A DNA stretch of 64,000 bases from Escherichia coli (GTDB lineage: Bacteria; Pseudomonadota; Gammaproteobacteria; Enterobacterales; Enterobacteriaceae): NCBI RefSeq assembly GCF_003018255.1, contig NZ_CP027440.1. One strand, given 5' to 3'. Below the pieces are notes generated by a model. That model made no database searches and was not told where the DNA came from. It saw nothing but the letters and a program-made list of their open reading frames with translations. Below, piece by piece: positions 29,882-39,192 of this stretch; positions within the stretch are counted from its first letter, which is position 1, and each line of letters opens with the position of its first letter. Made by a program: the position numbers and the translations under genes.

Positions 29882-30355
29882 TTATACGCGAGGGCGCTTG
29901 CGGTACAACCATAATCCAGGAATGGAAAGACCGATGGATAACGCACCAACAATTGATGAAGCTGTAAGAAAGTTGGTTAACAGGGTAATCATCAACGGTT
30001 CGCTGTAACCTAGCTGGCTGATTTTTACCGCCGAAATCATTGCGGTATAAGCCGATATGCCAGGGAACATAGGAATAACAGCCGCCACGGTAAACACTTT
30101 CGGATGCGCCAGATACCAGCGCGACCATTGAATACCAATGGTGCCGACCAGCATAGAAGCCATAAAAGTTGACCACTCAATATTCAGCCCGCTGGTCATT
30201 AAGATCATTCGGGAACCATGACCTATCGAGCCAAGCAGCGCACACCAGCGTAACGCCCGCACGGGAACGTTGAACACCATCGCAAAGCCGACCGCAGGAA
30301 TGGCGGCGAGGATCATATCCTGCGCCAACGCTAACAGAAATTCGATCACACCCAT
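29882..30355 (-). CDS. yjjB: ThrE-family (DUF3815) inner membrane protein YjjB
   Basis: [24 protein letters not shown]... 157 aa; overlaps the yjjP stop by 10 nt. Confidence 0.8.
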
Positions 30356-31116
30356 CCGCGTAGCCCCCAAATCGTCAGTGCCATCACCACGCCGACGCAG
30401 GTAGCCAGTGTCAGCAGACTGGCGATCGCCCAGCGTGCCAGTCCGGTATTGATGTGGCCTTTAAACATATCGGCGACGGCATTAATCAACGGAAAACCCG
30501 GCACCAGCAGCAGAACGCTGGCGGCCATCGCGATAGTGGGTGTATTGCTGAAAGTGGGAAGTTGCAAAAGCAAACCGGAAATGGTGGTGGCGGCGAAAGC
30601 GGTGAGGCAAAAGTTGATCTGTGGATGAAGATGACGTTGTGCCAGCAGCTGGCGGATATACATCGCGACCGTACTGGCAAAGAAGGTGATGACGGCACCA
30701 TCCCAGCCACCTTTATTGAGTTTACAGAAACAGGCGCAAGAAAGGCCGACCATTAAGGCTACCAGCCATCTCGGGTAACGTAATGGCTGAATTTGGCTAA
30801 ATCGTTTCTCTACACCTTTGTAATCCAGCAGATGATGCTCCGCCAGAATCACAATGTGCTGGACTTCAGTCACCACATGCATATTAATGCCGCGATCGTG
30901 ATTTTTTCGTGTCGATGTCAGGCATTGCCCATCTTTAATGGTTGTCAGCACTATGGCGTTCGAAGAGATAGAACTTTCGACGCTGTCCATTCCCAACGCC
31001 CGACCCAGTCGTGAGGAAAGCTCATCAACCAACGCGCTTTCCGCACCATGTTGCAAAAGAAATAATCCACACTGGATACAAAGCCGTGTTACGGCTCGCT
31101 GTTGCTCAGTTTGCAT
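30346..31116 (-). CDS. yjjP: ThrE-family (DUF1212) inner membrane protein YjjP
   Basis: [30 protein letters not shown]... 256 aa. Confidence 0.8.
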
Positions 31117-31734
31117 AACTCGCCCTTTGTCATAGACGTGCTGCGTATTGTTCAGATAATGAGAATCCATTTGTATCATGAAGCACGGTTGTTTTGCGGC
31201 AGGTTAAGATCAAAATTGCGCTGATTAATCCTGGTTATCGGGAGAAGCTCGGTGTTAAAAAGCGAATTATCTCTCGTCGCAAACAAATTATCGCATGAAT
31301 ATTATCACTATAATGAATTTATTGTTTAGCCCTTACGAATCAGGATAAAAGATAACTGGGCGCGTTTTTTAATTTTTACAAGTTAAAACTATCAGATTTT
31401 ATTGAATAAATATTGATTGTGTGATTTTGCATTCTGCTGGAAGGGATATCAGTTAATTATAAATTAAATGAATGAGAATTCTGTTTTTCATTAAGTATTT
31501 CTAACAACTTAATGTAGATATTTTAAATGTCTCCAGGCTATTTCACCAGGTTATCATTTGATGCTAACCTTCTGACACATGCAGTGGAGTTGTTGTGCAG
31601 CAGGAGTATGCTGATATGAAAGTGAATGCTAAGGATAATTTATTCGCTTAATCTATTAATTTGCTGGAAACATTTAAGGAATGAATATCCTGAATAAACC
31701 ATCATGATTTTTAGACAGTGGATGTGGAGGAAAT

Positions 31735-32460
31735 ATGTTGCCAGGATGCTGCAAAAATGGAATTGTTATCAGTAAAATACCTGTTATGCAAGCAGGGTTA
31801 AAAGAGGTCATGAGGACTCACTTCCCTGAATATGAAATAATATCCAGCGCCTCTGCGGAGGACCTTACCTTATTACAATTACGTCGTTCCGGATTAGTCA
31901 TTGCTGATTTAGCCGGTGAAAGTGAAGATCCACGTTCTGTTTGTGAACATTATTATTCTTTAATCTCACAATATCGGGAAATTCACTGGGTTTTCATGGT
32001 GTCACGCTCCTGGTATTCCCAGGCAGTAGAACTGCTTATGTGCCCTACGGCGACGTTATTGTCTGATGTTGAACCCATTGAGAATCTGGTCAAGACCGTA
32101 CGTTCCGGCAATACGCACGCAGAGCGTATCAGCGCCATGCTGACCTCTCCGGCAATGACTGAAACTCATGATTTTAGCTATCGCTCCGTCATTCTCACTC
32201 TTTCAGAGCGCAAGGTACTGCGGCTATTAGGTAAAGGATGGGGCATCAACCAGATAGCTTCATTGCTTAAGAAAAGTAATAAAACTATCAGCGCCCAAAA
32301 AAACAGTGCGATGCGTCGACTGGCAATTCACAGCAACGCTGAAATGTATGCATGGATAAATAGCGCGCAGGGTGCAAGAGAACTTAACTTGCCTTCTGTT
32401 TATGGAGATGCCGCAGAATGGAACACAGCCGAATTAAGAAGAGAAATGTCGCACTCATAG
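31735..32460 (+). CDS. yjjQ: LuxR/FixJ-type transcriptional regulator YjjQ
   Basis: 241 aa with C-terminal LuxR HTH; GGAGG Shine-Dalgarno; preceded by a roughly 620-bp AT-rich intergenic region. Confidence 0.85.
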
Positions 32461-33095
32461 AAAAATGCGTCATGAGCAGTATCGGTATTGAGAGTTTATT
32501 CAGAAAGTTTGCGGGTAACCCTTATAAGCTCCATACCTATACCAGTCAGGAGTCATTTCAGGATGCCATGTCGCGGATCTCGTTTGCGGCGGTCATTTTT
32601 TCTTTTTCTGCCATGAGAAGTGAGCGCAGAGAGGGATTATCTTGCCTGACTGAACTGGCGATTAAGTTTCCGCGTACCCGGCGTTTAGTTATTGCGGATG
32701 ATGATATTGAAGCTCGGCTGATTGGTTCATTGTCGCCATCACCGTTGGACGGTGTATTAAGTAAAGCGTCAACGCTGGAGATTTTTCATCAGGAACTCTT
32801 TTTGTCATTAAATGGTGTACGTCAGGCGACCGACCGACTGAACAATCAGTGGTACATTAATCAAAGCCGAACGCTAAGCCCGACGGAGAGAGAAATATTG
32901 CGCTTTATGTCGCGTGGCTACTCAATGACACAAATTGCCGAGCAGCTTAAACGCAATATCAAAACGATCCGTGCACATAAATTTAATGTGATGTCGAAAC
33001 TGGGCGTCAGTTCTGATGCAGGGTTGTTGGAGGCCGCAGATATTCTGTTATGTATGCGGCATTGCGAAGCAAGTAATGTGTTGCATCCCTATTAA
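32418..33095 (+). CDS. bglJ: LuxR/FixJ-type transcriptional activator BglJ
   Basis: [31 protein letters not shown]... 225 aa; overlaps yjjQ by 43 nt. Confidence 0.9.
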
Positions 33096-33131
33096 TCCAC
33101 ATGATGCCGGGTTTACTTCCCCGGCAGTGCT

Positions 33132-33920
33132 TCATTTCAGCGTACAATCGCCACATTGCTGCACATCCGGTAAGCGATAACGCTGGCAGCAAGTGCGGCG
33201 CACCAGCAGGCCGTCGCGCAGTACCACGGTACGCCAGAGTGGATTATCTTCACCGTTCGTGAGCATTTTCTCAAAAAAGAGGGCATGGCGCAGCGATTCA
33301 ACCGTCGCCTCGCCAAGCAGCTGTTTCATCTCAGTCAGATACCAGTTGATCAAATAACCGGTATTGCTCCAGATAAGTTTGCCGTTGATCTCTCCCGTCG
33401 CTTCTAATGCCTGCACTACCGGAACAAGCGCCTGGCTGATTAACGTTTCCATTCGCTGCTGCGGCGAATGTAGTGTTGCGTTTTTATCTTCACACACATC
33501 GACCCAGAAACAGGCGGCGCGTCCGGTTTCGTGAAACTCAACGTGGAAATGTTCCGGCGACACATCTAATGCTTTTTCCTGCGTCAGCAGCGCCAACATT
33601 AATGGTGGCACCATCAGGCCGATATACCATTGTGCCCATAGTGAGATCAGCGGTTTGTTCTCGCGGATCATCAAGGGTTGGTTGCGGTAGATATGATCGG
33701 AATAGACCGCCAGTTGAGAACTTAGCGTATTCGGTGATGACCATTGCGCCAGCGTCATGGCACGGAGCGGTGCGGGTTCATCCAGACGGATAAACTCCAG
33801 CAAATGTTCACGATGTTCGGCGATCGTCGCCCGTACGGCTTGTGCAAGCCCAGCATCCTGCGGCTGGAGATGCGTTCGCCAGATAACATCTTCATAGAGC
33901 GGTGCGGAACGATAGGCCAT
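33132..33920 (-). CDS. fhuF: Ferric-siderophore reductase FhuF (2Fe-2S, C-terminal CC-x10-C-x2-C)
   Basis: 262 aa ending ...RRTCCQRYRLPDVQQCGDCTLK. Confidence 0.9.
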   Translation of the reverse strand: MAYRSAPLYEDVIWRTHLQPQDAGLAQAVRATIAEHREHLLEFIRLDEPAPLRAMTLAQWSSPNTLSSQLAVYSDHIYRNQPLMIRENKPLISLWAQWYIGLMVPPLMLALLTQEKALDVSPEHFHVEFHETGRAACFWVDVCEDKNATLHSPQQRMETLISQALVPVVQALEATGEINGKLIWSNTGYLINWYLTEMKQLLGEATVESLRHALFFEKMLTNGEDNPLWRTVVLRDGLLVRRTCCQRYRLPDVQQCGDCTLK

Positions 33921-33924
33921 AATC

Positions 33925-33958
33925 GTGATAGTAATCTAAATGATAATGATTGCTAATC
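33925..33958. promoter_or_regulatory. Candidate Fur box in the fhuF promoter
   Basis: GTGATAGTAATCTAAATGATAATGATTGCTAATC contains GATAAT-type hexamer repeats immediately upstream of fhuF. Confidence 0.45.
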
Positions 33959-34060
33959 CTAGCGATAGGTTTACCCGATAGCAAGGGATTTCTCTGGCTT
34001 GCAAATGATAAAGATTATCATATGATATTGGTTATCATTATCAATGAAAGAGATGAAACC

Positions 34061-34297
34061 ATGTTGCAACGTACGCTGGGCAGTGGCTGGGGAGTGTTGC
34101 TGCCGGGATTGCTGATTGCAGGGCTGATGTATGCGGATTTATCGCCGGATCAATGGCGGATTATCATTCTGATGGGATTAGTATTGACGCCGGCGATGCT
34201 GTATCACAAACAGTTGCGGCATTACGTTTTGCTGCCATCGTGCCTGGCGCTTATTGCTGGCATCATGCTGATGATAATGAATTTGAAGCAGGGATGA
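34061..34297 (+). CDS. yjjZ: Small inner-membrane protein YjjZ (78 aa)
   Basis: MLQRTLGSGWGVLLPGLLIAGLMYADLSPDQWRIIILMGL... from ATG at 34061; the ORF-track upstream extension is not used. Confidence 0.7.
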   Translation: MLQRTLGSGWGVLLPGLLIAGLMYADLSPDQWRIIILMGLVLTPAMLYHKQLRHYVLLPSCLALIAGIMLMIMNLKQG

Positions 34298-34335
34298 TAA
34301 AACAGGGAAGAAACAAGAAAGGAAGTAAAGATAAT

Positions 34336-34422
34336 TGGTGCGAGGGGGGGGACTTGAACCCCCACGTCCGTAAGGACACTAACACCTGAAGCTAGCGCGT
34401 CTACCAATTCCGCCACCTTCGC
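34336..34422 (-). tRNA. leuV: tRNA-Leu (anticodon CAG), third gene of the leuQPV operon
   Basis: Reverse complement reads GCGAAGGTGGCGGAATTGGTAGACGCGCTAGCTTCAGGTGTTAGTGTCCTTACGGACGTGGGGGTTCAAGTCCCCCCCCTCGCACCA (87 nt, encoded CCA). Confidence 0.95.
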
Positions 34423-34456
34423 ACAGTCATCTTACTTTTTTTGATATTGCCTCGTT

Positions 34457-34543
34457 TGGTGCGAGGGGGGGGACTTGAACCCCCACGTCCGTAAGAACAC
34501 TAACACCTGAAGCTAGCGCGTCTACCAATTCCGCCACCTTCGC
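34457..34543 (-). tRNA. leuP: tRNA-Leu (anticodon CAG), middle copy; variable-arm C-to-T variant relative to the flanking copies
   Basis: Same 87-nt sequence except plus-strand A at 34496 (tRNA sense GTGTTCTTAC instead of GTGTCCTTAC). Confidence 0.95.
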
Positions 34544-34571
34544 CCAGTGCGAGCAATATCAACGTGGTTTT

Positions 34572-34658
34572 TGGTGCGAGGGGGGGGACTTGAACCCCCA
34601 CGTCCGTAAGGACACTAACACCTGAAGCTAGCGCGTCTACCAATTCCGCCACCTTCGC
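34572..34658 (-). tRNA. leuQ: tRNA-Leu (anticodon CAG), promoter-proximal copy
   Basis: Identical 87-nt tRNA-Leu sequence. Confidence 0.95.
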
Positions 34659-34692
34659 ATACCGTCAATTCTTAAAAAGAATTGCTACCACG

Positions 34693-34727
34693 GAGGCGCA
34701 TTCTAGTGGTTTTCAGCTTTTCGTCAA
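34693..34727 (-). promoter_or_regulatory. Sigma-70 promoter of the leuQPV tRNA operon with GC-rich discriminator
   Basis: Minus strand: -35 TTGACG (34722-34727), 16-nt spacer, -10 TAGAAT (34700-34705), then GCGCCTCC discriminator; AT-rich UP-like sequence upstream. Confidence 0.5.
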
Positions 34728-34802
34728 TAGTTAATTATCGACAGAGGTGTAATTGCTGGAAAAATGTCCATCAGCGGATTGTGGATAATTCGTTTGTCGG
34801 TC

Positions 34803-34842
34803 AGATAAGGCGTGTACGCCGCATCCGACACGGTATGCGGCG
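34803..34842. repeat. REP element
   Basis: GATAAGGCGTGTACGCCGCATCCGACACGGTATGCGGCG palindromic unit between rsmC and leuQ. Confidence 0.5.
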
Positions 34843-34857
34843 ATATATATCAGATAC

Positions 34858-35889
34858 TCAACCTTTCTTCGCCTGGCGGGTCATAATGGCGCGATACACC
34901 TTGAAGCGCCCGGTTTGCGCGATCACTTCGTGGAAGCCAAATGTCTCATCCAGCACGTCCGGATAAGGCAGGAAGGCGTTCGCTACAATTCGCAGCTCGC
35001 CGCCGCTATTAAGATGACGCACCGCGCCGCGAATCAGCGTTTGCGCGGCATCCAGGCTGGTTTGCATCCCATCGTGGAACGGCGGGTTGGAGATGATCAT
35101 ATCAAAACGACCTTTCACCTCGGAAAAGACGTTACTGGCAAAGACTTCACCTTCAACACCGTTGGCCGCAAGTGTTGCGCGGCTGGCTTCTACCGCTGGT
35201 GCAGAGACATCGCACAGAGTGAGACGAATTTTCGGCGAATGGCGCGCAAAGGCAACCGAAAGTACGCCCGCGCCACAGCCGACATCCAGCACTTTACCTT
35301 TCGTGTGCGGGGTTAACGTCGAGAGCAGCAACTGGCTACCGACATCCAGACCGTCGCGGCTAAACACGCCAGGCAGCGTTTTGACCGTCAGGCCATCGAC
35401 GCTGTATTCGCCCCAGAATTTATCGGCATCAAATACTGGCTGTTTTTCCAGACGACCAAAATAGAGGCCACAGCGACGAGCGCTGTCCATTTTATTCAAC
35501 GGCGCATAATCTGACAGCATCTGCTCGGCGCTGCGCACGCCGCTGCGGTTCTCGCCAACGACAAAAATATCCGTGCCCACTGGCAGCAGAGAAAGTAAAT
35601 TCATCAACTGGAACTGGGCTTCCGGTTTGTTCTTCGGCCAGTAGTAAATCAGCGTATCGCAATCTGCGACATCATCCGCCGTGGCGACCAGACTAAAACG
35701 GGCGTTATCCCCCATCTGGCGGCTTAACACCTGCCAGTGGTGGAATTGCTGGGTATGAGCACGGCTGGCCGCGGTATCTAAACGCGCGGGCAGGTCATCC
35801 TGTAAGTCTCCGGCAAAAAGAATACGGCTTTGTTCGAAATCATCACTGTGACGCAGCAAGACTTCACTTGCCGGGGTAAATGCAGACAT
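34858..35889 (-). CDS. rsmC: 16S rRNA (guanine1207-N2)-methyltransferase RsmC
   Basis: 343 aa, SAM-MTase motifs [11 protein letters not shown] and NPPFH. Confidence 0.9.
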
Positions 35890-35991
35890 GGAATGCTCCT
35901 CAATTAATACTGGCGGCGATTATAGCCATATGTTGGCGCGGTATCGACGAATTTGCTATATTTGCGCCCCTGACAACAGGAGCGATTCGCT

Positions 35992-36405
35992 ATGACATCC
36001 CGACGAGACTGGCAGTTACAGCAACTGGGCATTACCCAGTGGTCGCTGCGTCGCCCTGGCGCGTTGCAGGGGGAGATTGCCATTGCGATCCCGGCACACG
36101 TCCGTCTGGTGATGGTGGCAAACGATCTTCCCGCCCTGACCGATCCTATAGTGAGCGATGTTCTGCGCGCGTTAACCGTCAGCCCCGATCAAGTGCTGCA
36201 ACTGACGCCAGAAAAAATCGCGATGCTGCCGCAAGGCAGTCGCTGCAACAGCTGGCGGTTGGGTACTGACGAACCGCTATCACTGGAAGGCGCTCAGGTG
36301 GCATCACCGGCGCTCACCGAATTACGGGCAAACCCAACGGCACGCGCCGCGTTATGGCAACAAATTTGCACATATGAACACGATTTCTTCCCTCGAAACG
36401 ACTGA
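35992..36405 (+). CDS. holD: DNA polymerase III psi subunit HolD
   Basis: MTSRRDWQLQQLGITQWSLRRPGALQGEIAIAIPAHVRLVMVANDLPAL... 137 aa. Confidence 0.9.
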   Translation: MTSRRDWQLQQLGITQWSLRRPGALQGEIAIAIPAHVRLVMVANDLPALTDPIVSDVLRALTVSPDQVLQLTPEKIAMLPQGSRCNSWRLGTDEPLSLEGAQVASPALTELRANPTARAALWQQICTYEHDFFPRND

Positions 36406-36820
36406 TTTACCAGCGGCTTACCACATTGAACAACGCGCCCACGCCTTTCCGTGGAGTGAAAAAACCTTTGCCAGCAACCAGGGCGAGCGTTATCTCAACT
36501 TTCAGTTAACGCAAAACGGCAAAATGGCGGCGTTTGCGATTACGCAAGTGGTGCTGGATGAAGCTACATTGTTCAATATTGCGGTCGATCCTGACTATCA
36601 GCGTCAGGGATTGGGAAGGGCGCTGCTGGAACATCTGATCGACGAACTGGAAAAACGCGGCGTGGCGACGCTATGGCTGGAAGTCCGTGCTTCAAACGCT
36701 GCCGCCATTGCCCTGTACGAAAGTTTAGGCTTTAACGAGGCGACAATTCGCCGCAATTACTACCCCACCACGGACGGTCGCGAAGACGCCATCATCATGG
36801 CGTTGCCAATCAGTATGTAA
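36374..36820 (+). CDS. rimI: Ribosomal protein S18 alanine N-acetyltransferase RimI
   Basis: 148-aa GNAT protein ([14 protein letters not shown]); overlaps holD by 32 nt. Confidence 0.9.
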
Positions 36821-36834
36821 GACAAGGTGGAATA

Positions 36835-37512
36835 ATGAAGTGGGACTGGATTTTCTTTGATGCCGATGAAACGCTGTTTACCTTTGACTCATTCACCGGC
36901 TTGCAGCGGATGTTTCTTGATTACAGCGTCACCTTTACCGCTGAAGATTTTCAGGACTATCAGGCCGTTAACAAGCCACTGTGGGTGGATTATCAAAACG
37001 GCGCGATCACTTCATTACAGCTTCAGCACGGGCGGTTTGAGAGCTGGGCCGAACGGCTGAACGTCGAGCCGGGTAAACTCAACGAAGCCTTTATTAATGC
37101 GATGGCGGAAATCTGTACGCCACTGCCGGGCGCGGTTTCTCTGCTTAACGCCATTCGTGGCAACGCTAAAATTGGCATCATCACCAACGGCTTTAGCGCC
37201 TTGCAGCAAGTGCGTCTGGAACGCACGGGCCTGCGTGATTATTTCGATTTGCTGGTGATTTCCGAAGAAGTTGGCGTTGCCAAACCGAATAAGAAAATTT
37301 TCGATTATGCGCTGGAACAGGCAGGCAATCCTGACCGTTCACGTGTGCTGATGGTTGGCGACACAGCTGAGTCCGATATTCTCGGTGGCATCAACGCCGG
37401 GCTTGCGACCTGCTGGCTGAATGCGCACAATCGCGAGCAACCAGAAGGCATCGCGCCCACCTGGACCGTTTCTTCGTTGCACGAACTGGAGCAGCTCCTG
37501 TGTAAACACTGA
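36835..37512 (+). CDS. yjjG: HAD-superfamily pyrimidine 5'-nucleotidase YjjG
   Basis: [15 protein letters not shown] (HAD motif I DxDxT); 225 aa. Confidence 0.9.
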
Positions 37513-37602
37513 TTGCCTCCCCCCCGTTGATGGGTAAAATAGCCGCAATTTTTCGTTTTCAACAAGCGCGGCGCGATGCCGCTTACTCAAGAAGAAAGAA
37601 TT

Positions 37603-39192
37603 ATGACGTTGTCTCCTTATTTGCAAGAGGTGGCGAAGCGCCGCACTTTTGCCATTATTTCTCACCCGGACGCCGGTAAGACTACCATCACCGAGAAGGT
37701 GCTGCTGTTCGGACAGGCCATTCAGACCGCCGGTACAGTAAAAGGCCGTGGTTCCAACCAGCACGCTAAGTCGGACTGGATGGAGATGGAAAAGCAGCGT
37801 GGGATCTCCATTACTACGTCTGTGATGCAGTTTCCGTATCACGATTGCCTGGTTAACCTGCTCGACACCCCGGGGCACGAAGACTTCTCGGAAGATACCT
37901 ATCGTACCCTGACGGCGGTGGACTGCTGCCTGATGGTTATCGACGCCGCAAAAGGTGTTGAAGATCGTACCCGTAAGCTGATGGAAGTTACCCGTCTGCG
38001 CGACACGCCGATCCTCACCTTTATGAACAAACTTGACCGTGATATCCGCGACCCGATGGAGCTGCTCGATGAAGTTGAGAACGAGCTGAAAATCGGCTGC
38101 GCACCGATCACCTGGCCGATTGGCTGCGGCAAGCTGTTTAAAGGCGTTTACCACCTTTATAAAGATGAAACCTATCTCTATCAGAGCGGTAAAGGCCACA
38201 CGATTCAGGAAGTCCGCATTGTTAAAGGGCTGAATAACCCGGATCTCGACGCTGCGGTTGGTGAAGATCTGGCACAGCAGCTACGTGACGAACTGGAGCT
38301 GGTGAAAGGCGCGTCTAACGAGTTCGACAAAGAGCTGTTCCTTGCGGGCGAAATCACTCCGGTATTCTTCGGTACTGCGCTGGGTAACTTCGGCGTTGAT
38401 CATATGCTGGATGGCCTGGTGGAGTGGGCTCCTGCGCCGATGCCGCGTCAGACTGATACCCGTACCGTAGAGGCGAGCGAAGACAAATTTACCGGCTTCG
38501 TATTTAAAATTCAGGCCAACATGGACCCGAAACACCGCGACCGCGTGGCGTTTATGCGTGTGGTGTCCGGTAAATATGAAAAAGGCATGAAGCTGCGCCA
38601 GGTGCGTACTGCGAAAGATGTGGTGATCTCCGACGCGCTGACCTTTATGGCGGGTGACCGTTCGCACGTTGAAGAAGCGTATCCTGGCGATATCCTTGGT
38701 CTGCACAACCACGGCACCATTCAGATCGGCGACACCTTTACCCAGGGTGAGATGATGAAGTTCACCGGTATTCCGAACTTCGCGCCAGAACTGTTCCGTC
38801 GTATCCGCCTGAAAGATCCGCTGAAGCAAAAACAGCTGCTTAAAGGGCTGGTACAGCTTTCCGAAGAGGGCGCGGTGCAGGTGTTCCGTCCGATCTCCAA
38901 CAACGATCTGATCGTTGGTGCGGTTGGTGTGCTGCAGTTTGATGTGGTGGTAGCGCGTCTGAAGAGCGAATACAACGTTGAAGCAGTGTATGAGTCAGTC
39001 AACGTTGCCACTGCCCGCTGGGTAGAATGTGCGGACGCGAAGAAATTCGAAGAGTTCAAGCGTAAGAACGAAAGCCAACTGGCGCTTGATGGCGGCGATA
39101 ACCTCGCTTACATCGCTACCAGCATGGTCAACCTGCGCCTGGCGCAGGAACGTTATCCAGACGTTCAGTTCCACCAGACCCGCGAGCATTAA
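37603..39192 (+). CDS. prfC: Peptide chain release factor 3 (RF3)
   Basis: [41 protein letters not shown]... translational GTPase; ATG at 37603. Confidence 0.95.

Follow-up and report, generated by a model that had tools for sequence, protein, structure and literature searches.

The three tandem tRNA-Leu(CAG) genes in the window, by which we mean the whole 64-kb stretch of DNA analyzed here, are almost certainly the canonical Escherichia coli leuQ-leuP-leuV operon. The middle gene, leuP, deviates from the two outer copies at one base only, and that base is the one carried by leuP of the reference strain K-12 MG1655 and by the majority of complete E. coli genomes. Both the operon and the single-base difference of leuP are already known and are not a novelty of this strain.

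Identity and anatomy of the tRNA-Leu(CAG) array

Using ARAGORN, exactly three tRNA genes were detected in the window, all of them tRNA-Leu(CAG) genes on the minus strand. With the Rfam model RF00005, each gene obtained a score of 48.5 bits (gathering score 29, E = 3.7e-8). A scan at the Rfam gathering thresholds from 30000 to 39000 yielded no family over threshold apart from the three tRNAs, by which a further known RNA family in this region was ruled out. Every gene is 87 nt in length, carries the CAG anticodon at positions 35-37, and ends in GCACCA, the 3' CCA being encoded. The long variable arm possesses its own 4-bp stem (46-49/54-57), as is characteristic of a class II tRNA-Leu. The features of the locus are compiled in Table 1.

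Table 1. Features of the leuQ-leuP-leuV locus, ordered by position in the window
Feature	Position	Strand	Remarks
yjjZ	34061..34297	+	encodes a DUF1435 protein; located past leuV (opposite the rsmC side) and convergent with it
Trailer	34256..34335	-	unstructured, C-rich, G-poor; presumed Rho-dependent terminator region
leuV, tRNA-Leu(CAG)	34336..34422	-	distal, C48 form; ARAGORN, Rfam; 100% identical to K-12 leuV
leuP-leuV spacer	34423..34456	-	34 nt; one SNP compared to K-12 (A for G)
leuP, tRNA-Leu(CAG)	34457..34543	-	middle, U48 isodecoder; ARAGORN, Rfam; 100% identical to K-12 leuP
leuQ-leuP spacer	34544..34571	-	28 nt; identical to K-12
leuQ, tRNA-Leu(CAG)	34572..34658	-	promoter-proximal, C48 form; ARAGORN, Rfam; 100% identical to K-12 leuQ
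Precursor 5' leader	34659..34691	-	about 33 nt; transcription start inferred
Candidate sigma-70 promoter	34692..34727	-	consensus scan, 10/12 matches; identical to K-12
-35 hexamer	34727-34722	-	TTGACG; followed by a 16-nt spacer
-10 hexamer	34705-34700	-	TAGAAT
Discriminator	34699-34692	-	GCGCCTCC
REP element	34796..34842	-	single element with upstream complementary arm, between rsmC stop and promoter
rsmC	34858..35889	-	343-aa ORF; upstream same-strand neighbour; named as in K-12 and E04

In K-12 MG1655, leuQ-leuP-leuV corresponds to b4370-b4369-b4368 (NC_000913.3, 4606079-4606401). The three genes of the window, including U48 of leuP, are 100% identical to those of K-12, as are the 28-nt spacer, the promoter, and the discriminator, and both genomes share the synteny fhuF / yjjZ / leuV-leuP-leuQ / rsmC / holD. 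The two loci differ by one SNP in the 34-nt spacer and another in the leader. In addition, the intergenic region between rsmC and leuQ has a length of 199 nt with one REP in the window but of 267 nt in K-12, where the extra sequence of about 68 nt constitutes an additional REP in inverted orientation. rsmC ends with TGA in the window and with TAA in K-12, and 9 nt (TGATATATA) are inserted directly behind the stop codon. A region of 1.1 kb around the array matched 5,425 of 5,426 complete E. coli genomes at identities of up to 99.8%. According to RefSeq, the gene order in K-12 MG1655 and in the best hit, strain E04, is bglJ, fhuF(-), yjjZ(+), three tRNA-Leu(-), rsmC(-), holD, rimI. The preliminary description of this DNA had listed three 87-nt genes on the minus strand with spacers of 34 and 28 nt, which proved exact by ARAGORN and Rfam. 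It had also named them the leuQPV triplet; the name is justified by the three Leu-CAG calls, and no fewer, returned by ARAGORN, by the copy-by-copy identity to K-12, and by the synteny.

leuQPV are three of the cell's four tRNA-Leu1 genes (anticodon CAG, reading CUG). From the 100% identity to the K-12 genes, their products would be expected to be charged with leucine and to decode CUG. The fourth tRNA-Leu(CAG) gene, leuT, belongs to another operon (argX-hisR-leuT-proM) outside the window and in K-12 has C48, the same sequence as leuQ and leuV. All three genes of the window display an A-C mismatch at the acceptor-stem pair 5:79, as do other Enterobacteriaceae; Morganellaceae have G-U at this pair, and variant copies from Lelliottia and Enterobacter have A-U or C-C.

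Base 48 of leuP is the reference allele

Alignment of the three copies revealed a single difference at tRNA position 48, where leuQ and leuV have C and leuP has T; U48 of leuP corresponds to the plus-strand A at 34496. As free folding is uninformative for unmodified tRNA sequences, the cloverleaf was imposed on both variants. In this imposed structure, the variable-arm stem is formed by G46-C57, U47-A56, C48-G55, and C49-G54. Position 48 thus pairs with G55, and C48U turns the C-G pair into U-G, changing the model energy from -30.0 to -27.1 kcal/mol at a cost of 2.9 kcal/mol. The variable-arm hairpin also formed when the C48 copy was folded freely. The full cloverleaf occurred in the free MFE folds of neither variant, and the z-scores were weak (-1.4 and -0.6). 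Unmodified tRNA transcripts commonly miss the cloverleaf as their MFE structure, which has no bearing on function. Alignment and imposed cloverleaf together confirm the conversion of a C-G into a U-G pair that the preliminary description had ascribed to A at 34496. In calling leuP a "variant middle copy", it was right about the difference but overstated its status, since U48 is the majority state in E. coli and that of the reference leuP.

Copy-by-copy alignment showed that leuP of K-12 MG1655 likewise has T at position 48. Hence, in the comparison with K-12 leuP suggested by the preliminary description, A at 34496 turned out to be the reference leuP allele. As identity bands of long queries cannot resolve a one-base difference, we determined the frequency of both forms with queries of 55 and 88 nt. 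The 55-nt queries were centred on base 48, so that every 28-mer megablast seed spans the variant. These queries yield numbers of genomes rather than the joint distribution per genome: of the 5,426 complete E. coli genomes, 4,852 contained the U48 form (median of 1 copy, 4,978 places) and 5,425 the C48 form (median of 3 copies, 16,164 places). Accordingly, about 10% of the E. coli genomes are without U48 by the 55-nt query. A spacer-anchored 88-mer was covered by at least 80% in 4,976 of 5,426 genomes, leaving about 450 without the context of spacer 1. An additional mismatch within the U48 55-mer occurred in 65 E. coli records.

It is exceedingly improbable that A at 34496 arose by a sequencing or assembly error or as a private mutation of the strain. 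Such an origin would agree with the prior expectation, taken by itself, that tandem identical tRNA genes are homogenised, and with the work of Mohanty and Kushner, who drew the three genes as "identical" (PMC2190699). However, the same base in K-12 leuP and its presence in 4,852 of 5,426 genomes, found by a 55-mer that is unable to seed on C48 copies, exclude both an error and a private mutation, and U48 also occurs in the middle copy of many other genera. Moreover, the one-base difference in the variable arm of leuP is already in print (PMC12472396), and a tRNA-seq preprint separates (leuP) from (leuQ leuT leuV) (bioRxiv 10.1101/2020.02.21.958157).

Variation of the array in E. coli and other Enterobacterales

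Within E. coli, the array is not invariant. In O157:H7 (NZ_CP101522.1, locus 1287-1373), it has shrunk to one C48 gene, with loss of leuP. Promoter, leader, trailer, and neighbouring genes are like those of the window, but one tRNA gene is present instead of three. The collapse probably arose via recombination between identical copies. In O111:H- 11128 (locus 1229-1315), the middle copy keeps U48 and has acquired C26U, leading to a G-U pair in the D-stem. Similarly, the middle copy of E. albertii combines U48 with C24U, again resulting in a D-stem G-U pair. The outer copies of both are unchanged. Every extra change in the middle copy is a sense-strand C-to-U transition by which pairing is kept as G-U, a pattern that would fit transcription-associated deamination at a gene of very high expression.

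Beyond the species, representative genomes were scanned with a 31-mer carrying U48, and the fetched loci were typed by local ARAGORN and tblastn. At least 120 loci across the Enterobacterales were obtained, all of them U48-bearing; a sample ascertained in this way demonstrates a wide distribution and gives no frequency of C-U-C relative to C-C-C. Among the matches listed, the order rsmC, Leu(CAG) array, convergent yjjZ is conserved through the Enterobacteriaceae. The exact C-U-C triplet downstream of rsmC, with copies differing at position 48 only, was found at no fewer than 26 loci from at least 12 named genera. Its holders among the matches listed are Escherichia, Salmonella, Citrobacter, Klebsiella, Raoultella, Enterobacter, Kosakonia, Phytobacter, Pseudocitrobacter, Pseudenterobacter, Intestinirhabdus, and a MAG. 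The same matches include other orders, namely C-C-U in Pluralibacter and Trabulsiella, U-U-C in one Kosakonia, and x-x-U in Lelliottia and some Enterobacter. In Lelliottia and Enterobacter, again among the matches listed, a C-to-U wobble also occurs at position 49 of the same stem (U49).

The Morganellaceae among the matches listed harbor a doublet behind rsmC consisting of one U48 and one C48 copy, in the order U-C in at least 14 Xenorhabdus species and Photorhabdus and in the order C-U in Proteus and Morganella. Singleton U48 genes among the matches listed represent leuT within argX-hisR-leuT-proM of many genera other than E. coli, including Citrobacter, Klebsiella, Raoultella, Enterobacter, Escherichia whittamii, Morganella, Xenorhabdus, and Pantoea. 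Some of the genomes listed, e.g. K. pneumoniae, E. cloacae, and E. whittamii, gave a U48 leuT but no U48 array. These sequences speak for a great age and a wide distribution of U48 rather than for its universality. U48 is the ordinary allele of leuP and makes it an isodecoder whose variable-arm stem has a U-G wobble in place of C-G; the allele is inherited vertically and old, being common to many Enterobacteriaceae.

Some of the fetched Leu(CAG) genes had a length of 85, 86, 88, or 89 nt. These lengths could be due to homopolymer sequencing errors or to an indel hot spot at the 8-C run; an indel hot spot in a run of 8 C has been described in mismatch-repair-defective lines (PMC8510543).

Promoter and 5' leader

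Upstream of leuQ, a candidate promoter was identified by consensus scan, with the 5' end of the tRNA located 41 nt past the -10 hexamer. Both hexamers and the sequence from -10 through GCGCCTCCGTGGT were invariant in 17 taxa (at least 12 genera) chosen for C-U-C. The strong promoter with a GC-rich discriminator mentioned in the preliminary description was thereby borne out, as TTGACG-16-TAGAAT is followed by the GC-rich octamer, agrees with the consensus at 10 of 12 positions, and is invariant across genera. A GC-rich discriminator is a hallmark of stringently controlled stable-RNA promoters. The hexamers in combination with the discriminator therefore point to a stringently controlled sigma-70 promoter of the stable-RNA type, and a single promoter of this kind would drive the whole operon. 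The conserved A/T-rich blocks AATTAACTA and CATTTTT farther upstream are at most suggestive of activation via Fis or an UP element. In the literature collection searched, nothing relevant on the leuV promoter was found.

An inverted-repeat search revealed a perfect 8-bp hairpin in the leader, formed by CAATTCTT/AAGAATTG at 34666-34684 on the minus strand. Across 34 Enterobacteriaceae leaders, 94.9% of the cells of this hairpin were paired, compared to 29-55% in slid controls. Two of the pairs showed compensatory changes, with A-U replaced by U-A in 13 of the 34 leaders. Morganellaceae have a hairpin of other sequence at the same position of the leader.

Spacers, trailer, and predicted processing of the precursor

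In the 17 taxa chosen for C-U-C, the 28-nt spacer displayed a mean pairwise identity of 90% with 20 of 28 columns invariant, and the 34-nt spacer one of 82%. The trailer after leuV (34276-34335) was far below both spacers, with a mean pairwise identity of 47% in the 17 taxa. The conservation of the spacers suggests that they are under constraint, perhaps imposed by processing through RNase P alone.

A minus-strand intrinsic terminator was looked for after leuV and none was found, and over the first 40-60 nt of the trailer, C outnumbers G by a factor of 5.0-5.3. The lack of an intrinsic terminator together with the C-rich trailer fits the published mode of termination, as transcription has been demonstrated to end Rho-dependently after leuV, with PNPase and RNase II removing the terminator sequence (PMC2190699). 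The same study showed that RNase P suffices for separating the leuQ leuP leuV transcript, with no need for RNase E, and that neither internal CCA is followed by U (PMC2190699). The CCA-proximal sequences of the window, CCAAAAACC and CCAAACGAG, are as published, and no U directly follows the internal CCAs. Because these sequences are shared with the published operon, we take the pathway to apply here as well. The two-gene operon valV-valW, which encodes another tRNA, is likewise separated by RNase P only and possesses a Rho-dependent, unstructured terminator that is removed by PNPase and RNase II; processing of the leuT operon, in contrast, depends on RNase E (PMC2190699).

The tricistronic precursor would thus consist of a hairpin leader of about 33 nt, leuQ, the 28-nt spacer, leuP, the 34-nt spacer, leuV, and the C-rich trailer. 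Transcription would end Rho-dependently within the trailer, and RNase P alone would cut at each mature 5' end and thereby separate the three tRNAs. PNPase and RNase II would strip off the trailer, and 3' exonucleases would trim the ends to the encoded CCA.

Neighbouring genes and REP element

The yjjZ stop codon is located 38 nt from the 3' end of leuV, and the tRNA trailer overlaps the final codons of yjjZ in antisense orientation. Read-through past leuV would hence yield an antisense RNA to yjjZ. On the opposite side of the array, the rsmC stop codon is found at 34858-34860, and the intervening REP element contains an exact match to the degenerate REP consensus at 34804-34826 (4 copies in the window compared to 0 expected) as well as palindrome arms at 34817-34824 and 34835-34842. 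Both yjjZ and a REP element had previously been placed between the operon and rsmC. This holds true for the REP element only; our analysis corrects the placement of yjjZ, which lies beyond leuV. At about 34005-34044, the promoter region between the divergent genes fhuF and yjjZ contains an AT-rich GATAAT/ATCAT repeat (GATAATGATAACCAATATCAT...) that may resemble a Fur box.

Discussion

Since A at 34496 is no error, it leaves no anomaly to pursue, and a textbook operon such as this one has little discovery value in itself. The question that bears on the biology of the array is whether U48 is neutral. Most likely, U48 is functionally near-equivalent to C48, given that the variable arm is not among the elements read by E. 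coli LeuRS. Retention of U48 at the same position of the array could instead mean that it is selected. Selection would hold the C48/U48 isodecoder pair at fixed array positions if the two tRNAs differed in some property; this could be stability, modification, order of processing, or susceptibility to tRNA-targeting nucleases. Alternatively, the mismatch could reduce recombination between adjacent repeats. Selection of this kind would explain why C-U-C is kept in at least 12 named genera although the adjoining trailer has dropped to 47% identity, why the rsmC-linked doublet of the Morganellaceae likewise retains both forms, and why leuT carries U48 in many other genera. We nevertheless consider it unlikely. 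All fetched loci were U48-bearing, which introduces an ascertainment bias, and several genomes among the matches listed gave a U48 leuT yet no U48 array. The C-U-C order is broken in these matches by C-C-U, U-U-C, and x-x-U arrays. In addition, the entire operon including its spacers evolves slowly, so that stasis at one site is not special. leuP is gone in O157:H7, and about 10% of the E. coli genomes do without U48. Finally, U49 in Lelliottia and Enterobacter suggests that a wobble in this stem is tolerated rather than specifically needed.

It is also conceivable, if quite improbable, that leuP is the least constrained and partly redundant member of the array and is slowly degenerating, with U48 opening a series of mildly deleterious C-to-U changes. 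The second C-to-U change in the middle copy of O111:H- 11128 (C26U) and of E. albertii (C24U), the 65 E. coli records with an extra mismatch in the U48 55-mer, and the fact that O157:H7 tolerates collapse to one gene would be in line with such a decay. However, position 48 apart, leuP shares 100% identity with the adjoining tRNA genes in E. coli as well as in 16 of the 17 taxa chosen for C-U-C, which is not how a decaying gene would look, and the extra changes are all wobble-preserving. Near-equivalence of U48 and C48 thus remains our preferred reading.

The retention of C-U-C, the higher conservation of the spacers relative to the trailer, and the leader hairpin maintained by compensatory changes may be of interest for work on tRNA processing or on the concerted evolution of tandem tRNA genes; none of them alters the identification of the operon. 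A farther-reaching proposal, to which we assign only a small chance, is that an ancient C48/U48 pair is under selection, as C-U-C in the Enterobacteriaceae and as U-C or C-U in the Morganellaceae, and that the spacers and the leader hairpin act as cis-elements of a maturation carried out by RNase P only. If the pair were indeed selected, leuP would encode a functionally distinct tRNA and not a harmless variant.
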